Source: an uncultured Alphaproteobacteria bacterium
GTDB taxonomy: Bacteria; Pseudomonadota; Alphaproteobacteria; MPNO01; DASWLB01
DNA: 64,000 bases
Reading direction: 5' to 3'
Assembly: GCA_963775315.1 (NCBI GenBank)
Contig: CAVZIN010000010.1
Coordinates: forward strand, 101,268-165,267
Shown here: positions 1,316 to 63,938 of the stretch, piece after piece
Position numbering within the stretch: the first letter of the stretch is position 1
Layout of the letters: each line of letters opens with the position of its first letter
Translations under genes and position numbers: made by a program
Notes under the pieces: generated by a model
Database searches by the model: none
The model's input: only the letters and a program-made list of their open reading frames with translations
Told to the model about the DNA's origin: nothing

Positions 1316-3397
1316 GTGCCCCGCGATGTCGCCTATTCCGCCTGTCCGCACGACTGCGCCTCGACCTGCGCGCTGGAGATCGAGCGCATCGACGGGGTGC
1401 GGATCGGCGCCGTCCGCGGCGCCGAGGCCAACCCCTACACGGCGGGGGTCGTCTGCGCCAAGGTCGCGCGCTATGCCGAGCGGACGCACCATCCCGACCG
1501 CCTGACCGTGCCGCTCCGCCGCGTCGGGCCGAAGGGCTCGGGGTCGTTCGAGCCGGTTTCATGGGATGCGGCGCTCGACGCGGTCGCCGGCGCTTTCAAG
1601 GCGGCCGCCGGGCGCCACGGCACCGAGGCGATCTGGCCCTACAACTACGCCGGCACGATGGGGCTGGTGCAGCGCGACGGGCTGCAGCGGCTGCGCCACG
1701 TGATGCGCACCTCGCGCCAGCACTCGACCATCTGCGCGACCCTGTCGGCGGCCGGCTGGCGCGCCGGCACCGGCATCCAGCGCGGCATCGACCCGCGCGA
1801 GGTGCCGGAGTCCGACCTAGTCGTGCTGTGGGGCTGCAACCCGGCGACGACGCAGGTCAATCTGATGCACCACGTCGCCCGCGCCCGGAAGGAGCGCGGC
1901 GCCAAGCTCGCGGTCATCGACCCGTACCGCACCCGCACCGCCGCGATCGCCGACATCCATCTCGACCCGCGTCCCGGCACCGACGGCGCGCTCGCCTGCG
2001 CCATTATGCATGTGATCCTGCGCGACGGGCTCGCCGACCGCGACTACCTGGCCGCCTACACCGATTTCTCGCCCGAAATGGAGGCGCATTTCGCCACCCG
2101 CACGCCGGAATGGGCGGCGGCGATCACCGGGCTCGCGCCGGCGCGCATCGAGGCGTTCGCCGCGCTCTACGGCGCGACCAAGCGGAGCTGGCTCAAGATC
2201 GGCTACGGGTTTTCGCGCTCGCGCAACGGCTCGGCCAACGTGCACGCGGCGAGCTGCCTGCCCGCCGTCACCGGGGCATGGCGCCACCGTGGCGGCGGGG
2301 CGGCCGCCTCGCTGTCGGCAAGCTTCGTCATCGACACCACGCTGATCGAGGGGCTCGACGCGCTCGACCCGGCGACGCGCCTCCTCGACATGTCGCGCAT
2401 CGGCGCCATCCTGAACGGCGCGGAGGCCGACCTCGCGGGCGGCCCGCCGGTCACCGCGATGCTGATCCAGAACACCAACCCCTGCGCGGTGGCGCCCGAT
2501 TCCGGCCTCGTGCGGCGCGGATTCGCCCGCGAAGACCTGTTCGTCTGCGTCCACGAGCAGTTCATGACCGACACGGCGCGGATGGCCGACATCGTCCTGC
2601 CGGCGACCACCTTCGTCGAGCATGACGACATCTATACCGCCTACGGCCACACCTTCCTGCAGATGGGCCCGCGCGTCATCCCGCCGGTCGGCGAGGCGCG
2701 CCCCAACCACGACGTCATCTCGGCGCTGGCGGCACGGCTCGGCCTCTCGCACGAGGGGTTCCGCCTCTCCGCCTGGGAGGTCATCGACCGCACGCTCCGC
2801 GCCTCCAGCCTCGGAACGGCGGACGAGCTTCGCGAGAAGCGCTGGATCGACTGCGCGCCGTCGTTCGAGAGCGCGCACTTTCTGAACGGGTTCGCGACGC
2901 CCGACCGGCGCTTCCACTTCGCGCCCGACTGGTCGCGTGTCGGGCGCGACCACGCCGTCATGCCGCGCCTGCCCGACCACATGCCGGCGATCGACGCGGC
3001 CTCGGATCGGCACCCCTTCCGCATGGTGACAGGCCCGTCGCGCAGCTTCCTCAACTCCACCTTCACCGAGACGCCAAGCTCACGAAAGCAGGCCGGCCGG
3101 CCGGCCGTCCGCATCGCGCGGGCCGATTGCGACCGGCTGGGCGTCGCCGCCGGCGACCGCGTGCGGCTCGGCAACGACCGGGGAAGCCTGGTGATTCACG
3201 CCGAGCCGTTCGACGGGCTGCCGCAAGGCGTGATCGTCGTGGAAAGCGTGTGGCCGAACGACGCCTTCGAGGAGGGGATCGGCATCAACCTCTTGACCAG
3301 CGCCGACCCGGGCCCGCCGCTGGGCGGGGCGATATTCCACGATACGGCGGTGTGGGTGAGGCCCGAGCCGCCTCATCCTTCGACACGCCCGGGATAA
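1316..3397 (+). CDS. Molybdopterin-dependent oxidoreductase with N-terminal 4Fe-4S site
   Basis: GTG start after GGAG; ACPHDCASTC...C Fe-S motif; TDTARMADIVLPATT; C-terminal molybdopterin-binding domain. Confidence 0.88.
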   Translation: MPRDVAYSACPHDCASTCALEIERIDGVRIGAVRGAEANPYTAGVVCAKVARYAERTHHPDRLTVPLRRVGPKGSGSFEPVSWDAALDAVAGAFKAAAGRHGTEAIWPYNYAGTMGLVQRDGLQRLRHVMRTSRQHSTICATLSAAGWRAGTGIQRGIDPREVPESDLVVLWGCNPATTQVNLMHHVARARKERGAKLAVIDPYRTRTAAIADIHLDPRPGTDGALACAIMHVILRDGLADRDYLAAYTDFSPEMEAHFATRTPEWAAAITGLAPARIEAFAALYGATKRSWLKIGYGFSRSRNGSANVHAASCLPAVTGAWRHRGGGAAASLSASFVIDTTLIEGLDALDPATRLLDMSRIGAILNGAEADLAGGPPVTAMLIQNTNPCAVAPDSGLVRRGFAREDLFVCVHEQFMTDTARMADIVLPATTFVEHDDIYTAYGHTFLQMGPRVIPPVGEARPNHDVISALAARLGLSHEGFRLSAWEVIDRTLRASSLGTADELREKRWIDCAPSFESAHFLNGFATPDRRFHFAPDWSRVGRDHAVMPRLPDHMPAIDAASDRHPFRMVTGPSRSFLNSTFTETPSSRKQAGRPAVRIARADCDRLGVAAGDRVRLGNDRGSLVIHAEPFDGLPQGVIVVESVWPNDAFEEGIGINLLTSADPGPPLGGAIFHDTAVWVRPEPPHPSTRPG

Positions 3398-58066: not shown

Positions 58067-59365
58067 TCAGAACCTGAGGCCGGCGTTCAGCATCACCGTG
58101 CCGTCGAGCTGACGGCCCGCGTCGGGGTCGGGCGCGAGCGGATCGCCGCGCCCGACGCTGGCGCTCAAGGTGAGGCGCGTCGCCTTGCCCGGCGCCTTGG
58201 GCATCAGCGGGCTGAAATCGAGCGAGGTGGTGAGGCGCCAGTCGCTGCCTCCGCCCGCCGGCTCGAGATGCATGGCGAAATGGGCGACGTCGATCCCGGC
58301 CGACACTTCCGGGAAGTCGGCCGACCGGTAGGTGAACCCGAGCCCGCCGCCCATGATGTCCGCAGCCCAGGCCGGTGCCGCGCGTGGCGCATCGCGCGAC
58401 CCGTAGCCCAGCCGGAATCGGGCTTTCCAGCGATCCCGCGACAGCTCCTCGCCGAGCGTGAAGGTGCGGCCGCCGCCGGCCGAGCCGTCGGTGTCTTCGG
58501 TCTCGGCGCGGGCGTAGCCGAGCCGCGTCGTCACGGGGCCCCAGCGCCAGTCGAGGGAATAATTGTCGTCGAGTTCGCCGAGGCGCGAGGCGACGCTGCC
58601 GTCGCCGGAATCGACGCTGACGGAGCGCCGGTCGGTGCGGCCATAGGTGATGCTGGCCGGCAGCAGCCGGCGCGCGAGCGGATCCGGCGGCCGCAGCGCG
58701 GCGAGCGACAGCTCGACCTTCAGTTGGTCGCTGTGGTCGTCGACGACGGGCGCCCCGTTGCGGCCGTCGGCGTTCGTTTCCGAACGGTCGTAGCCATAGC
58801 GCAGCGACAGAGCGTCGAACGCGGCCACCACGCCGTAGCCGACGGAATCCTGGTCGGGGCCGAGCCCATCTTTGTCGAGCCGGAAGCGCTGTCCCGCCGA
58901 TCGGTGCCGGCCATAGGCCGAAAGATGCGCCGCGCCGTCCTTGAGCACGTCGACCTCGACGCGCTGGCGGCTCGCCCCGTCCTCGATGCCGGCGCTCTCC
59001 TCCGCGGTGGGATCGATCTGCCAGGGCTCGACGGCGGCGCCCGGCCCGTCCGGCACCGCGGGGCCTGCCGTCGCCCCGTCAAAGCCGGAGATCACGCGGA
59101 CCCGGTCGTCGAACGCAGCGAACCGAATCTCGCCCCCATAAACCTTGTCACCCGCGGCATCGGGGACCGTGTCGGGATCCCGCTGCACATTGCCCGCGAT
59201 CTTGACGGAAAGGAGATCGGCGCCGATCAGGTCGCCTTGCACGGCGACCGGGCCATCGGCCTGGGCCATAGCGGCCGTGAGCCAGACCGTCGTCCCGATG
59301 CAGAACGGCACAACGGCGGACCAAACGAACCCGGTCCTGCGCCAAACGACGCGAATGGCGGTCAC
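58067..59365 (-). CDS. Hypothetical exported protein, possible outer-membrane beta-barrel
   Basis: Signal-peptide-like N-terminus (AMA-Q), amphipathic beta-strand patterns, terminal Phe (LNAGLRF). Confidence 0.55.
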   Translation of the reverse strand: MTAIRVVWRRTGFVWSAVVPFCIGTTVWLTAAMAQADGPVAVQGDLIGADLLSVKIAGNVQRDPDTVPDAAGDKVYGGEIRFAAFDDRVRVISGFDGATAGPAVPDGPGAAVEPWQIDPTAEESAGIEDGASRQRVEVDVLKDGAAHLSAYGRHRSAGQRFRLDKDGLGPDQDSVGYGVVAAFDALSLRYGYDRSETNADGRNGAPVVDDHSDQLKVELSLAALRPPDPLARRLLPASITYGRTDRRSVSVDSGDGSVASRLGELDDNYSLDWRWGPVTTRLGYARAETEDTDGSAGGGRTFTLGEELSRDRWKARFRLGYGSRDAPRAAPAWAADIMGGGLGFTYRSADFPEVSAGIDVAHFAMHLEPAGGGSDWRLTTSLDFSPLMPKAPGKATRLTLSASVGRGDPLAPDPDAGRQLDGTVMLNAGLRF

Positions 59366-59464: not shown

Positions 59465-59767
59465 TTAACGGCCGGTAAGCGTCGACACGCCGCGGTCGAG
59501 CGCAGCCAGCACCGCGCGATGACGCGCGAGCGCCCGAAGAAAGGCCGATTTGTTGCGCCGGTGGCGGTCGTTCAGCCGCTCGATACGCGCCAGGTTCTCG
59601 GCAACCGCCCGGTCGCTTTCGCGAATCAGCCGCTCGATCGCGCCGACCGTCGCCTCGAGCCGTTCGGCCGCCAGGGCCGACCGGCGCCAGGCCCAGGGCG
59701 GCAACACATCATAGCGGCGCTCGAGCGCGTCCATCCGCGCGAGCCGCGCAATTGGTTCGGGACGCAT
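59465..59767 (-). CDS. Small Arg-rich helical hypothetical protein under the PL-like promoter
   Basis: GGAGG RBS; strong promoter with operators directly upstream. Confidence 0.6.
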   Translation of the reverse strand: MRPEPIARLARMDALERRYDVLPPWAWRRSALAAERLEATVGAIERLIRESDRAVAENLARIERLNDRHRRNKSAFLRALARHRAVLAALDRGVSTLTGR

Positions 59768-59796: not shown

Positions 59797-59847
59797 ATTA
59801 TTACGCTTTTCGCAATCTTTGTCAAGGAAAATTGCGAATGACGTAAC
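59797..59847 (-). promoter_or_regulatory. PL-like promoter with two repressor operators
   Basis: Minus-strand TTGACA(59825-20)-N17-AATAAT; operators ATTACG-N5-CGCAAT (59800-16) and ATTGCG-N5-CGTAAC (59831-47). Confidence 0.75.
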
Positions 59848-59867: not shown

Positions 59868-60491
59868 CTAGCCGCGGAGCCGATGCCACATCACCGGGGC
59901 GATCCACTCCAGCTCGACGTCGTGCTCGATCGGCACCGCCGCATTGATCGAGACGAGGGTGAAGACGCCGGGCCGCGAGCCGCGCTCGAGCAGCTTCACC
60001 AGCTTGCGCCCGTCGACGGTCTGGACCACGCATTCCGTCCCGTAGCAGCGCTCGGGGTTCAACCCGCGCTCGCGCGAATAGCCGATCAGCTCGCCGTCCT
60101 TGAAGCGCGGCGCCATCGAGTTGCCCCGCACCTTGACGGCGAACCCGCCGTCGCCTTCGTCCGGTGGCGGCTCGATCTCGTCCATTCCCGCGCCTTGCGA
60201 ATGGTCGTCCAGAGCGAAGATCGTTTCGCCCGCGCCGACATAGCCGACGACCGGAATCCGCCGGCGGACCTGGACGGCCGCCTTGCCGAGCCGGGCCACC
60301 ACCTCGTCGAGCCCCGTCTCCAGGAACTCGGCGATGTCGACCGCCTCATCGTAGGACACGCGCCGGCGCTTGTTGAGAATCTCGGTGACGCGCGCGGCAT
60401 CGAGCCCGAGATGGGCGGCAAGTCCGCGCTGGGACTTGCCGAGCGTTCTCAGCCGATCCTGGAACCACTGCTTGTCGGGCGCGCCGGTCAT
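59868..60491 (-). CDS. CI/LexA-like repressor (HTH plus S24 peptidase)
   Basis: HTH SQRGLAAHLGLDAARVTEIL; VGAG cleavage site; GNSM serine and VK lysine. Confidence 0.9.
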   Translation of the reverse strand: MTGAPDKQWFQDRLRTLGKSQRGLAAHLGLDAARVTEILNKRRRVSYDEAVDIAEFLETGLDEVVARLGKAAVQVRRRIPVVGYVGAGETIFALDDHSQGAGMDEIEPPPDEGDGGFAVKVRGNSMAPRFKDGELIGYSRERGLNPERCYGTECVVQTVDGRKLVKLLERGSRPGVFTLVSINAAVPIEHDVELEWIAPVMWHRLRG

Positions 60492-60497
60492 GAAACC

Positions 60498-60585
60498 AGT
60501 ATGCCGGCGCAATGTGACCTGCGCAACGAAAAATTGCGTATAGCGCAATATTGGCTTGACATGAAATTGCGAATACCGTAATGAT
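60498..60585. promoter_or_regulatory. Divergent PRM/PR-like promoters with three operators
   Basis: Minus: TTGCGC-N17-CATACT, 6 nt before the cI ATG. Plus: TTGACA(60556)-N18-AATGAT. Operators at 60511-27 (degenerate), 60533-49 (perfect ATTGCG-N5-CGCAAT) and 60566-82. Confidence 0.78.
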
Positions 60586-60591
60586 GTCACC

Positions 60592-60891
60592 ATGACGAGC
60601 ATGGTCCCCGGCCGCATCGCGGCCCATGCGGAGAAGGTCCCGACGGACCTTCCCCGCCTCGCCCCATCCTCCGGTCCCGACCAGGCGCCCGACGAGGGCG
60701 GGTGCCGCTTCATTGCTGCCGATGTCGACTGGCGCCGGTGGTCCTATTGCGGGCGGCCCGTGGCGCGCGGCGCCTGGTGTCCCGCGCACGACGCGGCGGT
60801 CCACCGCTGGCGCGGCCTGATGGAACGCCAGCGGCTGGGCGAAGAGATCATCCGCCGCATGGCCGAGGGAGAGACCGATGAGCAGCCCTGA
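60592..60891 (+). CDS. GcrA C-terminal-domain-like small protein
   Basis: CRF...YCG...WCPAH pattern resembling GcrA CRWP...FCG...YC..H; no N-terminal HTH. Confidence 0.6.
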   Translation: MTSMVPGRIAAHAEKVPTDLPRLAPSSGPDQAPDEGGCRFIAADVDWRRWSYCGRPVARGAWCPAHDAAVHRWRGLMERQRLGEEIIRRMAEGETDEQP

Positions 60892-61414
60892 CGCAGCCGG
60901 CCGCACGCCTGCCAAGGACCGGCCCTGGGCCATCGAGAACCTGCCGATCCCGGGCGGGCGCATCGCCGACCTGGTCAGCGAGGGGGACCCGGATTGCCGG
61001 CCGGTCGCCCATCACCGCGTGGTCGACACGATCGGCCTTCTGGAGCGCAACGGCACCATTACGCCGGACATGGCGATGGCCGCCGAGGCGTTCGCCCGCG
61101 ACTTCCGCACCGCCCACCTCGCCGGGATCCGAACCGCCTCGCTGATCCGCGTCGATTCCTCGCGACGTCCCGAGCGTCCGCACGGCAACGAGGGCGCGCG
61201 GCGGCGCGTGCTGCGCGACATGGAAGCGCTCGGCGGCCTCGGCGCACCGGGGGCCCAGGCGGTGTGGCACGTGGTGGGGCTCGAAGAGTCGCTGCGTGAG
61301 TGGTCCCACAGCGACGCGTGGCAGGGAAAGCCGATCCGGTACTATGCGGCGCAAGGCGTTTTGGTCGCCGCGCTGGGGGTCTTGGCTCGGGTACGCAGCG
61401 CCGCGAAGTTCTAG
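60878..61414 (+). CDS. DUF6456 family protein (GafZ/GafA-C-like putative antiterminator)
   Basis: IT..M..A...F..DF, ARRRV...ALGG, VWHVVG...SLREW, QGVLVAALGVLA. Confidence 0.7.
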   Translation: MSSPDAAGRTPAKDRPWAIENLPIPGGRIADLVSEGDPDCRPVAHHRVVDTIGLLERNGTITPDMAMAAEAFARDFRTAHLAGIRTASLIRVDSSRRPERPHGNEGARRRVLRDMEALGGLGAPGAQAVWHVVGLEESLREWSHSDAWQGKPIRYYAAQGVLVAALGVLARVRSAAKF

Positions 61415-61425
61415 GAATAAACAGC

Positions 61426-61454
61426 TTGACAAGTGCTGCGCCATAGTCTAAAAG
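61426..61454 (+). promoter_or_regulatory. Late-type sigma70 promoter P1
   Basis: TTGACA-AGTGCTGCGCCATAGTC-TAAAAG. Confidence 0.6.
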
Positions 61455-61471: not shown

Positions 61472-61511
61472 AAAGGGCCCGCTGAAACTCAGGCTGAGCG
61501 GGCCTTTTTTT
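61472..61511 (+). terminator. Intrinsic terminator T1 directly after P1
   Basis: GGCCCGCT...AGCGGGCC stem followed by T7. Confidence 0.8.
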
Positions 61512-61551: not shown

Positions 61552-61580
61552 TTGACAAGCGCTGCACCATAGTGTATAAC
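61552..61580 (+). promoter_or_regulatory. Late-type sigma70 promoter P2 (duplicate of P1)
   Basis: TTGACA-AGCGCTGCACCATAGTG-TATAAC. Confidence 0.72.
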
Positions 61581-61654
61581 CCGCGTCACGGTCGAGACGA
61601 GGGCCCCGCGGCGAAACTCTTGCCGGAGCAGCCACCGGGTCCCCTATCCGCCGC

Positions 61655-61703
61655 GGGAGAGATCCCCTAGCCTGGGTAGGCGCGGGTCTCTCCCTTTTCT
61701 TTT
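61655..61703 (+). terminator. Intrinsic terminator T2 in the terminase leader
   Basis: GGGAGAGATCC...GGGTCTCTCCC followed by TTTTCTTTT. Confidence 0.7.
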
Positions 61704-61712
61704 CGGCCATTT

Positions 61713-61744
61713 ACGGCGCCCCTTGCGGGCGCCGTTTTCTTTTT
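61713..61744 (+). terminator. Intrinsic terminator T3 in the terminase leader
   Basis: ACGGCGCCC-CTTGC-GGGCGCCGT followed by TTTCTTTTT. Confidence 0.8.
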
Positions 61745-61765
61745 CCAGCCACAGGACCGGAGCCA

Positions 61766-62029
61766 ATGTCGGACAGGACCGCCCGAGCCGGAGAGACTCG
61801 CGCCGCGCCGCCAAGCCCGCTCGACGTGCAGCTCGCGACCATGCGGGCGCTCTTCGCCGCCGCGAAGAAGAGAGGGAAGATCGTCGACATCGAACTGGCG
61901 CGCCAGGCATGCGACATCGCCAAACTCGCCGCGCCCTACGTACACGCCCGCCTCGGCACCACGGAGCCGGCGCCCGAAGCGCGGGTGCGTCACGAGGACG
62001 TGCTCGACCAGCTCGATGGCCCGTCGTGA
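61766..62029 (+). CDS. Putative terminase small subunit
   Basis: 87 aa with SPLD..L..MR and AAPYVH.RL; GTGA-coupled to the large subunit; GGAG RBS. Confidence 0.6.
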   Translation: MSDRTARAGETRAAPPSPLDVQLATMRALFAAAKKRGKIVDIELARQACDIAKLAAPYVHARLGTTEPAPEARVRHEDVLDQLDGPS

Positions 62030-63576
62030 ACGAGCTGAAAATCCCGCAGCGCCGCCGGCTGAAGGGGGACTTCCCGCTCTACGCGGAGAAGTGCCTGCGC
62101 ATTCGGCCGAAATCGGGCGGGCTGGTGACGTTCGCGCTCAACCCGGTCCAGCGACGCTTGCACCAAGCCGCCGAGGCGCAGCGCGCGCAGACCGGGCGCG
62201 TGCGGGCGATCGTGCTGAAGGCGCGCCAGCCGGGCGTTTCAACCTATGTCGAGGGACGGTTCTACTGGAAGGTGACCCACCTGAAGGGCGTGCGCGCCTA
62301 TATCCTCACCCATCGCGACCAGGCGACCAACAACCTGTTTGCCATCGCCAAGCGGTTCCATGACAACTGCCCCGTCTCGGTGCGGCCGGAGTTGCGCGCG
62401 TCGAACGCCGAGGAGCTGGAGTTCGGCGCGCTCGATTCCGGCTATCGGGTCGGCACGGCCAAGGCAGCGGGTGTCGGCCGGTCGGACACGATCCAGTTCT
62501 TCCACGGGTCGGAGGTGGCGCAATGGCCGCGCGCCGACGAACACGCCGCGGGCGTGCTGCAGGCCGTCGCTGAGGCGCCGGACACGGAGGTCTGGCTGGA
62601 ATCGACGGCGCGCGGCGCGGGCGGGCTGTTCCACAACCTGTGGCGCGCGGCCGAGGCGGGCGAGAGCGGCTATCTCGCCCTGTTCGTGCCGTGGTTCGAG
62701 CACGCCGACTACCGCGTTACGCCGCCGCCCGGCTGGGCCGCGCCGCCGTCTTTCGCCGAGTACGGCGCGCTGCACCGGCTTGCGCCCGACCAGCTTCACT
62801 GGGCATGGGCGAAGAACGCGGAGATCGCGGGCGCGGCCGGGCTCGGCACCGACGAGCCGTGCTGGCGCTTCCGCCAGGAATACCCCGCCGACGCGGGCGA
62901 GGCCTTCCGCGCGAGCCGCACCGACGGGTTCATCGCCCCGCATCTGGTGCTCCGCGCGCGTGACTTCGTGCCGCCACCGCAGGACCACGCGGCGCTGGTG
63001 ATCGGTTGCGACTTCGCCCGCGGCGTACGCGACTGGAACTGGTTCGTCGACCGCCAGGGTCGCACGGCCGGCACCAAGGTGAACGAGCGGTTCCATTCGG
63101 ACGATATCGAGGACATCGCGGGCCGGCTCGCCCGCATCGTCGACCGCACAGGCCCCGCCATGTGCTTTCTGGACTCGGGCGGCGGCGGCGCGGCGGTGCA
63201 CGACATATTGCGCGCACGCGGCTACGGCCGCCGGCTCGCCCTGGTCAATTTCGGCGGCGCGCCGCGCGACGTGCGCCGCTGGGCGAACAAGCGGGCCGAA
63301 ATGTGGGGCGAGCTGCGCGACTGGCTGGCCGATCCCGGCGGCGCGTCGTTGCCGGACGACGACGTGCTGGACGCCGAGCTGACCGCGCCCGGCTTCCGCT
63401 ACAACGCGAACCAGCAGGTCGTGCTGGAGGACAAGGAATCGATCCGGGCCCGGCTGGGCAGCTCGACGGATGGCGGCGACGCCCTCGCTCTGACCTTCGC
63501 CGCCCCGCTCGGTCCGCCAACCTTGCGTCGCACCGCGCCGCGGAGTGAGGGCGGCTACGCCGTCCACGGCTGGTAG
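62026..63576 (+). CDS. Terminase large subunit
   Basis: Q motif LNPVQ, Walker A LKARQPGVST, Walker B FHGSEVA, ESTA coupling motif, nuclease IGCD / LDSGG / STDGGDALALTFA. Confidence 0.9.
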   Translation: MNELKIPQRRRLKGDFPLYAEKCLRIRPKSGGLVTFALNPVQRRLHQAAEAQRAQTGRVRAIVLKARQPGVSTYVEGRFYWKVTHLKGVRAYILTHRDQATNNLFAIAKRFHDNCPVSVRPELRASNAEELEFGALDSGYRVGTAKAAGVGRSDTIQFFHGSEVAQWPRADEHAAGVLQAVAEAPDTEVWLESTARGAGGLFHNLWRAAEAGESGYLALFVPWFEHADYRVTPPPGWAAPPSFAEYGALHRLAPDQLHWAWAKNAEIAGAAGLGTDEPCWRFRQEYPADAGEAFRASRTDGFIAPHLVLRARDFVPPPQDHAALVIGCDFARGVRDWNWFVDRQGRTAGTKVNERFHSDDIEDIAGRLARIVDRTGPAMCFLDSGGGGAAVHDILRARGYGRRLALVNFGGAPRDVRRWANKRAEMWGELRDWLADPGGASLPDDDVLDAELTAPGFRYNANQQVVLEDKESIRARLGSSTDGGDALALTFAAPLGPPTLRRTAPRSEGGYAVHGW

Positions 63577-63584
63577 TCGCGTCC

Positions 63585-63938
63585 ATGCGCGCCATCGCCG
63601 TGTTCCACGACCACGGCGGCGGCCGGCTGCGTCCGTTCCTGCGGCCGGGCTTCCGCCATGTCTTCTGCGCCGTCCGGAGCGGCGCCTACTGGATCGTCGT
63701 CGACGGCCGAAACGGCCTGCCGGAGATCGAGGTGGCGGCGGGCGCCGAGATCGACCTCGCCGCGTTCTATCGCGGTCTCGGCTACAGCGTGGCCGAGATC
63801 GCCGCCCTGCCGCGCCCGCCTCGCCAGCCCGTCGCGCTCGTCACTTGCGTCGGCGCGGCGAAGCGCGTGCTGGGCGTGCGTGCGCCCTTCGCCCTTACGC
63901 CCTACCGGCTCTGGAAACGCCTATCCCACCCAGAATAG
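63585..63938 (+). CDS. Hypothetical phage-associated protein
   Basis: LRPGFRHVF...W...TCV...KR.LG...TPY.LW; directly follows the terminase. Confidence 0.6.
   Translation: MRAIAVFHDHGGGRLRPFLRPGFRHVFCAVRSGAYWIVVDGRNGLPEIEVAAGAEIDLAAFYRGLGYSVAEIAALPRPPRQPVALVTCVGAAKRVLGVRAPFALTPYRLWKRLSHPE

Follow-up and report, generated by a model that had tools for sequence, protein, structure and literature searches.

The sigma-interacting domain (SID) of the Caulobacter crescentus cell-cycle regulator GcrA (residues ~105-152; 5YIX chain B, 7YE1/7YE2) consists of loops held together by a CCCH zinc finger of spacing C-X14-C-X9-C-X2-H, all four ligands of which are required for binding of sigma70, as are residues W120, G129, F130, F132, Y142 and Y151 (PMC5887438). 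Without its DNA-binding domain, GcrA is still found at sigma70 promoters in vivo (PMC4647560), and promoter opening is still slightly accelerated by it (PMC5887438). A second way of engaging sigma70 is found in the Caulobacter gene transfer agent (GTA), where GafZ, a DUF6456 protein with a sigma-like helix-turn-helix (HTH), binds an element in the -35/-10 interval and enables RNA polymerase to pass the terminators beyond it, its partner GafY contacts sigma70 domains 3-4 as well as GafZ, and a repressor keeps gafYZ off (PMC11150451). In the literature covered here, the GcrA SID is described only in GcrA, in full-length paralogues (mentioned in PMC3885167 and PMC4647560) and in phage homologues. 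The latter include the full-length phiCbK gp222, which was proposed to manipulate the host cycle (PMC3556154), and "GcrA-like" open reading frames (ORFs) of other phages (PMC11836647). Here we report that a 64,000-nucleotide stretch of DNA from an uncultured Alphaproteobacteria bacterium (the window) encodes, at 60592-60891, a stand-alone homologue of the GcrA SID that has no DNA-binding domain and adjoins a DUF6456 gene in a phage-derived gene cluster. The protein consists of a CCCH zinc finger (about 35 residues) and, after it, a conserved helix.

60592..60891, plus strand: stand-alone GcrA-SID-like gene, ATG start, 99 aa
60703-60789, plus strand: CCCH zinc finger of the SID-like protein, residues 38-66, with ligands C38, C53, C63 and H66

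An earlier reading made from the letters of the window (the sequence-only reading) had described this ORF as lacking an HTH and carrying the motif C-R-F-x11-Y-C-G-x7-W-C-x2-H. The translation has exactly that motif, as C38-R-F-x11-Y52-C53-G-x7-W62-C63-x2-H66, and the resulting spacing, C38-x14-C53-x9-C63-x2-H66, is identical to that published for the GcrA-SID zinc finger. The ORF matched zero Pfam families at E<=1, HTH families included, and zero PHROGs at E<=0.1; hence the protein is without a recognisable HTH. A Cro/CI-type HTH fold was found neither by Pfam at E<=1 nor in the structural model, which is made of zinc-finger loops and helices. The N-terminal HTH with which GcrA reads methylated GANTC is likewise missing, the DNA-binding-domain columns of the alignment being empty for the SID-like family. 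When the whole genome was translated in six frames (44,491 open frames of at least 50 aa, 7.24 million residues), the bare spacing C-x14-C-x9/10-C-x2-H occurred seven times: in the host GcrA, in a chromosomal SID-only paralogue, in the SID-like ORF and in four low-complexity frames.

Similarity searches connected the protein to GcrA. A word-indexed protein search returned three relatives of 107 aa each, and a four-sequence family profile gave 21 matches at E<=1e-3 among 1.84 billion representative proteins. Of the 20 matches scanned with Pfam, 14 were PF07750 GcrA proteins at E<=0.01, 11 of which also exceeded the curated cut-off; the remaining six had no PF07750 match and comprised two close relatives within the family, a pair of repeat proteins and a pair of small proteins. 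The matches to GcrA proteins always covered their C-terminal cysteine motif, and several of the matched proteins (62-97 aa) were themselves SID-only. For profile-profile comparison the GcrA reference set was taken from genes found by the Pfam model in a class-wide sample of 61 genomes; 31 ORFs were extracted and 28 aligned, those dropped being a duplicate locus, the SID-only paralogue and one ORF from the unpublished genome G040, which enters only the tallies of the 61-genome sample. By hhalign, a six-sequence alignment of the SID-like family matched the 28 GcrA proteins over 40 columns (P 1.4e-4, probability 53%) with all four zinc ligands in register; the controls gave P 0.14 for reversed GcrA, 0.33 for a DUF6456 alignment and 0.18 for reversed DUF6456. 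An alignment of 22 sequences that included GcrA proteins had invariant columns solely at M1, C38, C53, C63 and H66.

Two search results speak against this assignment: the Pfam model PF07750 misses the protein (at E<=1, and at E<=10 in the scan of its own genome), and the family-only profile misses the GcrA of the same genome at E<=10. For these reasons we regard the family as a divergent branch. Because the protein is without the DNA-binding domain and below the Pfam threshold, we place it in the GcrA-SID group but not among GcrA orthologues. A profile search against GcrA had been put forward by the sequence-only reading as a check, and its outcome was thus divided, the direct Pfam search being negative and the family profile and hhalign positive. 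RimM, which the family profile touched among PDB sequences at E 0.8-2 on the C-terminal helix only, was taken as a chance match.

Among PDB structures the top-ranked match of the AlphaFold model was the GcrA SID, 5YIX chain B, with a root-mean-square deviation of 1.8 A over 43 residues. Together with the identical spacing and the profile matches to GcrA, this bears out the central claim of the sequence-only reading, that the ORF encodes a stand-alone domain resembling the GcrA C-terminus. In the model a low-confidence N-terminus without helix (residues 1-36) precedes the zinc-finger loops and two helices, residues 64-72 and 76-91. The second of these contains RQRLGEE (R79-E85), which is invariant across the four closest sequences and has no counterpart in GcrA. 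The protein therefore differs from GcrA in having an extra conserved C-terminal helix and in falling outside the Pfam model, as well as in lacking the methyl-DNA-reading HTH, the long linker and the basic tail; and its gene is part of a phage-derived cluster governed by a CI-type repressor, whereas gcrA is a cell-cycle gene.

Binding to sigma70 is the property that would matter most for function. When the essential residues of Caulobacter GcrA were mapped onto the protein, W120 fell on F40, F130 on W50, F132 on Y52 and Y142 on W62, so that an aromatic residue is kept at four of the six positions. The other two have changed, which counts against binding: G129, where G129D is disruptive in Caulobacter, is replaced by R49, and Y151 by H71. 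A complex predicted with residues 128-519 of the host's own RpoD scored 0.54, the best of three controls scoring 0.00; runs agreed in at least 66% of contacts, the predicted local distance difference test (pLDDT) value of the partner was at least 64, and the predicted partner was, as for the GcrA SID, sigma70 domain 2. Of the solved complexes, 116 of 157 passed the mark used, as against two of 215 mismatched pairs. Only 18 of the 157 solved complexes passed with scores of 0.60 or less, as did both passing mismatches, so that 0.54 falls in a band where passes are often wrong and gives weak support. The pass may also reflect memory or likeness and not binding, because a like complex, 5YIX, has already been solved. 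Modelling with RpoD had been called for by the sequence-only reading. From the model and the retained aromatics we infer that the protein may bind sigma70.

The same features can be read in another way, namely that the zinc-finger fold was kept and sigma70 binding lost, the protein now acting as an adaptor or chaperone for DUF6456 or for another part of RNA polymerase through contacts of the finger and the conserved RQRLGEE helix. R49 and H71, in place of residues essential in Caulobacter GcrA, the helix 76-91 with its invariant R79-E85 and the weak RpoD score all fit such a role. We nevertheless consider it unlikely, given that four of the six key aromatics are kept, that the best structural match is a sigma-bound SID and that the complex controls scored 0.00.

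The ORF is unbroken in the window, in four other genomes and in six metagenome loci, and its G+C content at third codon positions (0.87) is as usual for coding frames here. The ratio of nonsynonymous to synonymous substitution (dN/dS, pairwise by Nei-Gojobori against three sister species throughout, with the amidohydrolase row excluded) is 0.29-0.58 at dS of 0.5-1.0, and neither the zinc ligands nor the residues beside them vary. These properties make a decaying or spurious ORF of no function an extremely unlikely explanation, despite the position of the gene as the least conserved of the element (55-64% identity), the low-confidence N-terminus of its product and the lack of any RNA record of ORF 60592-60891 among the sequencing runs listed, which comprise three soil-metagenome DNA runs from one study (shares 0.07-0.14) and no RNA runs.

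The sequence-only reading was also right in taking the gene to be the first of a rightward transcript, since a divergent HTH_3 + Peptidase_S24 repressor gene adjoins it. The features around that gene are as follows.

59868..60491, minus strand: CI/LexA-type repressor, HTH_3 + Peptidase_S24, 207 aa (Pfam and PHROG)
60556..60585, plus strand: rightward early promoter, TTGACA-18-AATGAT, 10/12
60533-60549 and 60566-60582: two operator palindromes at the rightward promoter, the first upstream of the -35 and the second between the -35 and -10
59797..59825, minus strand: leftward sigma70-type promoter before orf100, TTGACA-17-AATAAT, 11/12
59800-59816 and 59831-59847: two 17-bp operator-like palindromes at the leftward promoter, ATTRCG-N5-CGYAAT
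59465..59767, minus strand: orf100, conserved, 100 aa, lying downstream of the repressor gene (ORF)

The repressor matched Peptidase_S24 at E 2.1e-11, HTH_3 at 1.1e-6 and phrog_4 at 3.6e-21, and is 92-94% identical in three sister species with dN/dS of 0.04-0.07. Palindromes of the form ATTRCG-N5-CGYAAT occur four times in the window against 0.32 expected, a number reached in 0 of 100 shuffles, and all four flank the repressor gene. The operators of the rightward promoter are conserved in five genomes, as is the -35 of the leftward promoter. In all five the ATG of the SID-like gene lies only 7-10 nt past the -10, and its mRNA is for that reason probably leaderless. The 3' end of the gene overlaps the start of the DUF6456 gene by 14 nt, and the two form an operon. 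Orf100 is a candidate second regulator because it is the sole other gene visibly under repressor control. It gave no significant family (RHH_1 at E 0.29 only, no PHROGs and no usable match in the protein atlas) and is kept in L037-L039, L048, L139, L140 and L142, with dN/dS of 0.26-0.59.

Encoded at the head of the rightward operon, across from a repressor gene whose operators overlap both promoters, the SID-like protein might be a stand-in for Cro which, bound to sigma70 and without binding DNA, would weaken the repressor promoter or lock the induced state. This we find very unlikely. The protein has no DNA-binding domain, and there is no known example of the mechanism. Cro would not be required, because S24 repressors can inactivate themselves by cleavage, and a lysis-lysogeny decision may not exist here, because neither replication nor integration genes were recognised in the element. 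As the element is also vertically inherited (see below), the lambda "Cro slot" in which the sequence-only reading had placed the gene is a loose analogy. Its further suggestion, that for want of Cro the switch would be one-way, has to reckon with orf100 as a second gene under repressor control.

The second gene of the operon and the DNA that follows it resemble the GafZ system.

60878..61414, plus strand: DUF6456 (GafZ/GafA C-terminal-type) protein, 178 aa (PF20057)
61426..61454, plus strand: late promoter P1, TTGACA, the 17-nt conserved spacer AGTGCTGCGCCATAGTC and the -10 TAAAAG without the -7 T
61476..61511, plus strand: intrinsic terminator T1 after P1, GGCCCGC...GCGGGCC then T7
61552..61580, plus strand: late promoter P2, TTGACA, the 17-nt spacer AGCGCTGCACCATAGTG and the -10 TATAAC
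61581..61745, plus strand: conserved structured leader with terminators T2 (61655-61703) and T3 (61713-61745), before the first structural gene

The PF20057 match of the DUF6456 protein lies just under the cut-off (25.2 bits against 26.3, E 2e-5, profile positions 21-131 of 136). The same family is given in the precomputed annotation of this protein and of many of its homologues, of which 239 of similar size were found at E<=1e-5. The structural model resembles Q21 and sigma region 4, and dN/dS of the gene is 0.12-0.24. The promoter-like 22-mer of P1 and P2 has just two copies in the 4.49-Mb genome, both in the interval that separates DUF6456 from the first structural gene, and all eight late-promoter -10 hexamers in four genomes end in G or C, never in T. 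Such promoters, with a perfect -35 and a -10 that lacks the -7 T, are of a kind that would profit from a cofactor acting at sigma70 domain 2. T1 is conserved in L037-L039 with a changed loop. About 130 nt of the leader are conserved nearly base for base, exceeding the conservation of the surrounding coding genes; its predicted structure has 36 pairs, two of them with compensatory change, and no Rfam family fitted 61581..61745. The expected RNAs are about 60 nt from P1 to T1 and about 130 nt from P2 to T2, and recall the short terminated transcript of lambda PR'.

The arrangement is the same as that of GafY-GafZ and of RcGTA GafA (PMC11150451, PMC9638019) in having a repressor-held two-gene operon with the DUF6456 gene second. 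The target promoters have the same layout, also seen in Q systems, with a conserved element in the -35/-10 spacer and terminators thereafter, and the product of the first gene is likewise proposed to contact sigma70. GafY differs in that it binds DNA and sigma70 domains 3-4, whereas the SID-like protein looks like a binder of domain 2 and lacks any recognisable DNA-binding domain; its likeness to GafY is one of operon position and of proposed sigma70 contact. Given this context, we think it plausible, though a shade short of probable, that the SID-like protein serves as a cofactor of sigma70, working in trans with the DUF6456 antiterminator in much the same way as GafY does with GafZ. Upon inactivation of the CI/S24 repressor, the rightward early promoter would make a leaderless bicistronic mRNA for the two proteins. 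The SID-like protein, seated on sigma70 as GcrA is, would aid open-complex formation at P1 and P2 despite their missing -7 T. The DUF6456 protein, by means of its sigma-region-4-like HTH, would pick the promoter in trans by binding the 17-nt spacer between -35 and -10 and would then take RNA polymerase past T1-T3 into the terminase-portal-capsid-tail genes. The pair would in effect be a split GcrA-like activator and the counterpart of GafY-GafZ. Both the cooperation of the two proteins and antitermination by DUF6456 are conjectural steps of this scheme.

The SID-like and DUF6456 genes were neighbours in nine of nine loci with downstream DNA visible, which speaks for such a pairing. Several results weigh against it. 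We obtained no evidence for contact between the two proteins. DUF6456 was present in 111 IMG/VR contigs, of which 80 were kept; there the gene usually comes at the end of the early region, preceded by small conserved ORFs and, before these, by a primase/helicase-like gene. None of 76 viral contigs with at least 500 nt upstream had a CCCH ORF upstream of DUF6456, and the SID profile matched nothing in the 80 loci, from which it follows that DUF6456 proteins usually work without a SID-like partner; the pairing appears confined to the element described here. Moreover, the SID-like gene ranks at or near the top of the element in dN/dS. The proposal of the sequence-only reading that the protein is a co-activator of DUF6456 in the place of GafY is favoured by context, by the invariable adjacency and by the late promoters and terminators. 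A scan of IMG/VR with the SID-like family gave no match, nor did tblastn with the protein among 50,697 phage records. Among weak genome-collection matches at loci L040-L042 (E 1e-4 to 3e-4), L041 and L042 were dismissed as spurious; L042 lies inside a histidine-biosynthesis gene and L041 shows no clear gene.

Other GcrA-related proteins bear on the same question. The host encodes a full GcrA on contig C7 (PF07750, 72.3 and 31.7 bits). It also has a chromosomal SID-only paralogue at C9:134316-134603 (L002, ORF 1564..1824), an 86-aa frame that matches PF07750 with 58.5 bits over profile positions 67-152, has the spacing C-x14-C-x10-C-x2-H and is situated between TerB/DnaJ-like and amidase-like genes without phage context. 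C-terminal-only PF07750 matches were seen in three other genomes of the 61-genome class sample (G001, G003 and G056). Phage records show the opposite half of the protein: tblastn with the host GcrA against the 50,697 phage records gave 44 records, all via residues 1-49 and none via the SID. The GcrA DNA-binding domain alone (residues ~1-45) is widespread in phages (INPHARED matches H16-H55), and 40 Lactobacillus/Lacticaseibacillus phage records with this domain are annotated as cell-cycle regulator or DNA repair exonuclease. The published GcrA homologues of alphaproteobacterial phages are, like the SID-like gene, GcrA-family genes in a phage setting, with the difference that the phiCbK proteins are recognised by Pfam.

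A host that has both a full GcrA (C7) and a second SID-only ORF (C9) offers the SID-like protein a different target. Along the lines of the GcrA titration that the sequence-only reading had proposed first, it could occupy the GcrA site on sigma70, displacing host GcrA and the SID-only paralogue and so shutting off GcrA-dependent cell-cycle genes while the element is expressed, with no specific role at the late promoters. The protein has the same fold and the same predicted partner as the GcrA SID, and manipulation of the host cycle has been proposed for phage GcrA homologues (PMC3556154). Such a take-over seems improbable to us, since the gene is vertically inherited and always adjoins DUF6456, the -7 T defect of the late promoters is of a kind that a sigma-region-2 cofactor could offset, and competition requires stoichiometric amounts. 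GcrA titration and help at the late promoters are not mutually exclusive and could both be true.

The genes downstream of the leader identify the origin of the cluster.

61766..62029, plus strand: orf87, in the small-terminase position, conserved, no family match
62023..63576, plus strand: large terminase (phrog_2, E 2.9e-23)
63585..63938, plus strand: orf117, conserved (ORF)

Beyond the window follow a T7-type portal, Bbp19, a scaffold/protease-like protein, capsid (Phage_capsid_2) and tail tubular proteins A and B, the portal being ~37% identical to portals of Pelagibacter podoviruses. No integrase, replication or lysis genes were recognised in the element, in which several small ORFs are without assignment. 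In three sister species the cluster lies between the same host genes on both sides, an amidohydrolase and a CBS protein at the left and polyprenyl synthase, methyltransferase and glyQS at the right. A second genus keeps the order orf100-repressor-SID-DUF6456-orf87-terminase. Six metagenome contigs repeat this order, two of them showing the same host flank with 58-73% protein identity; some of the six are probably of the same species as genomes already counted. The DUF6456 gene is present in all five genomes of the family, which span two genera, and in 0 of 73 others of the order. The capsid gene (E<=1e-20) is likewise in five of five, with distant versions in two of the 73. Genomes G119 and G120, from another family, have a capsid 51% identical, but theirs is a differently ordered prophage without the SID-like gene and so was not counted as the same element.

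Values of dS lie between 0.24 and 1.48 for the element genes, and between 0.42 and 0.99 for the host genes at its flanks. Values of dN/dS run from 0.04 to 0.58 over the element, with 0.07-0.10 for the capsid and about 0.16-0.19 for terminase, portal and tubular B. As dS is like that of the flanking genes and dN/dS is low, the cluster has evolved in step with its hosts, with purifying selection acting on it. Such a pattern is characteristic of a domesticated, GTA-like, vertically inherited element and not of a recent prophage. The Caulobacter GTA (CcGTA) and RcGTA are likewise chromosomal, vertically inherited, phage-derived structural clusters. The present one differs from both in having a CI/S24 repressor and podovirus-type structural genes (T7-like portal, tubular A/B) in place of siphovirus-type ones.

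Our survey of the literature covered open-access listings and selected passages. Within that scope we found no SID-only protein coupled to a DUF6456/GafZ-type gene and no podovirus-type GTA-like element with CI/S24 plus GafZ-like control. The window may hold the control region of an undescribed, podovirus-derived, vertically inherited GTA-like element of one alphaproteobacterial family with a "split GcrA" late switch, in which a DNA-binding-free cofactor of sigma70 domain 2 and a GafZ/Q21-like DUF6456 antiterminator, the source of promoter specificity, open two late promoters without the -7 T and pass three terminators. Taken as a whole, this reading is possible but rather doubtful. If it were true, the GcrA SID would for the first time be seen at work as a transferable module in a protein other than the cell-cycle regulator, and a GafZ-type antiterminator would for the first time have an accessory sigma-binding factor that is not GafY. 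A natural, conserved, DNA-binding-free SID coupled to a GafZ-type antiterminator would make the domain a portable handle on RNA polymerase, and the pair would give a simple two-protein system for learning how domain-2 contacts promote promoter opening. The cluster is also a candidate for a new type of domesticated virus-like element, combining podovirus architecture, CI/S24 control and GafZ-like late activation, and bears on the origin and regulation of GTA-like elements.

Both borders of the cluster have peculiarities. The right end in this genome (L035 8897-10372, or 72897-74372 on the scale of the window) is rearranged or misassembled: an internal-virion gene is cut after 23 codons, tubular B codons 316-516 then appear a second time (inverted, 99% identical), and the tail fibre is reduced to residues 266-544, its C-terminal half. 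The three sister species retain both internal-virion genes, the whole tail fibre and a phrog_6637 gene. At the left border, between the host CBS-domain gene and the element, lies a 432-aa gene (58067-59365, minus strand) without a Pfam match. It is 44-51% identical in sister species with dN/dS of 0.46-0.62, is absent from this position in the metagenome loci L139 and L140, and is either fast-evolving or inserted.

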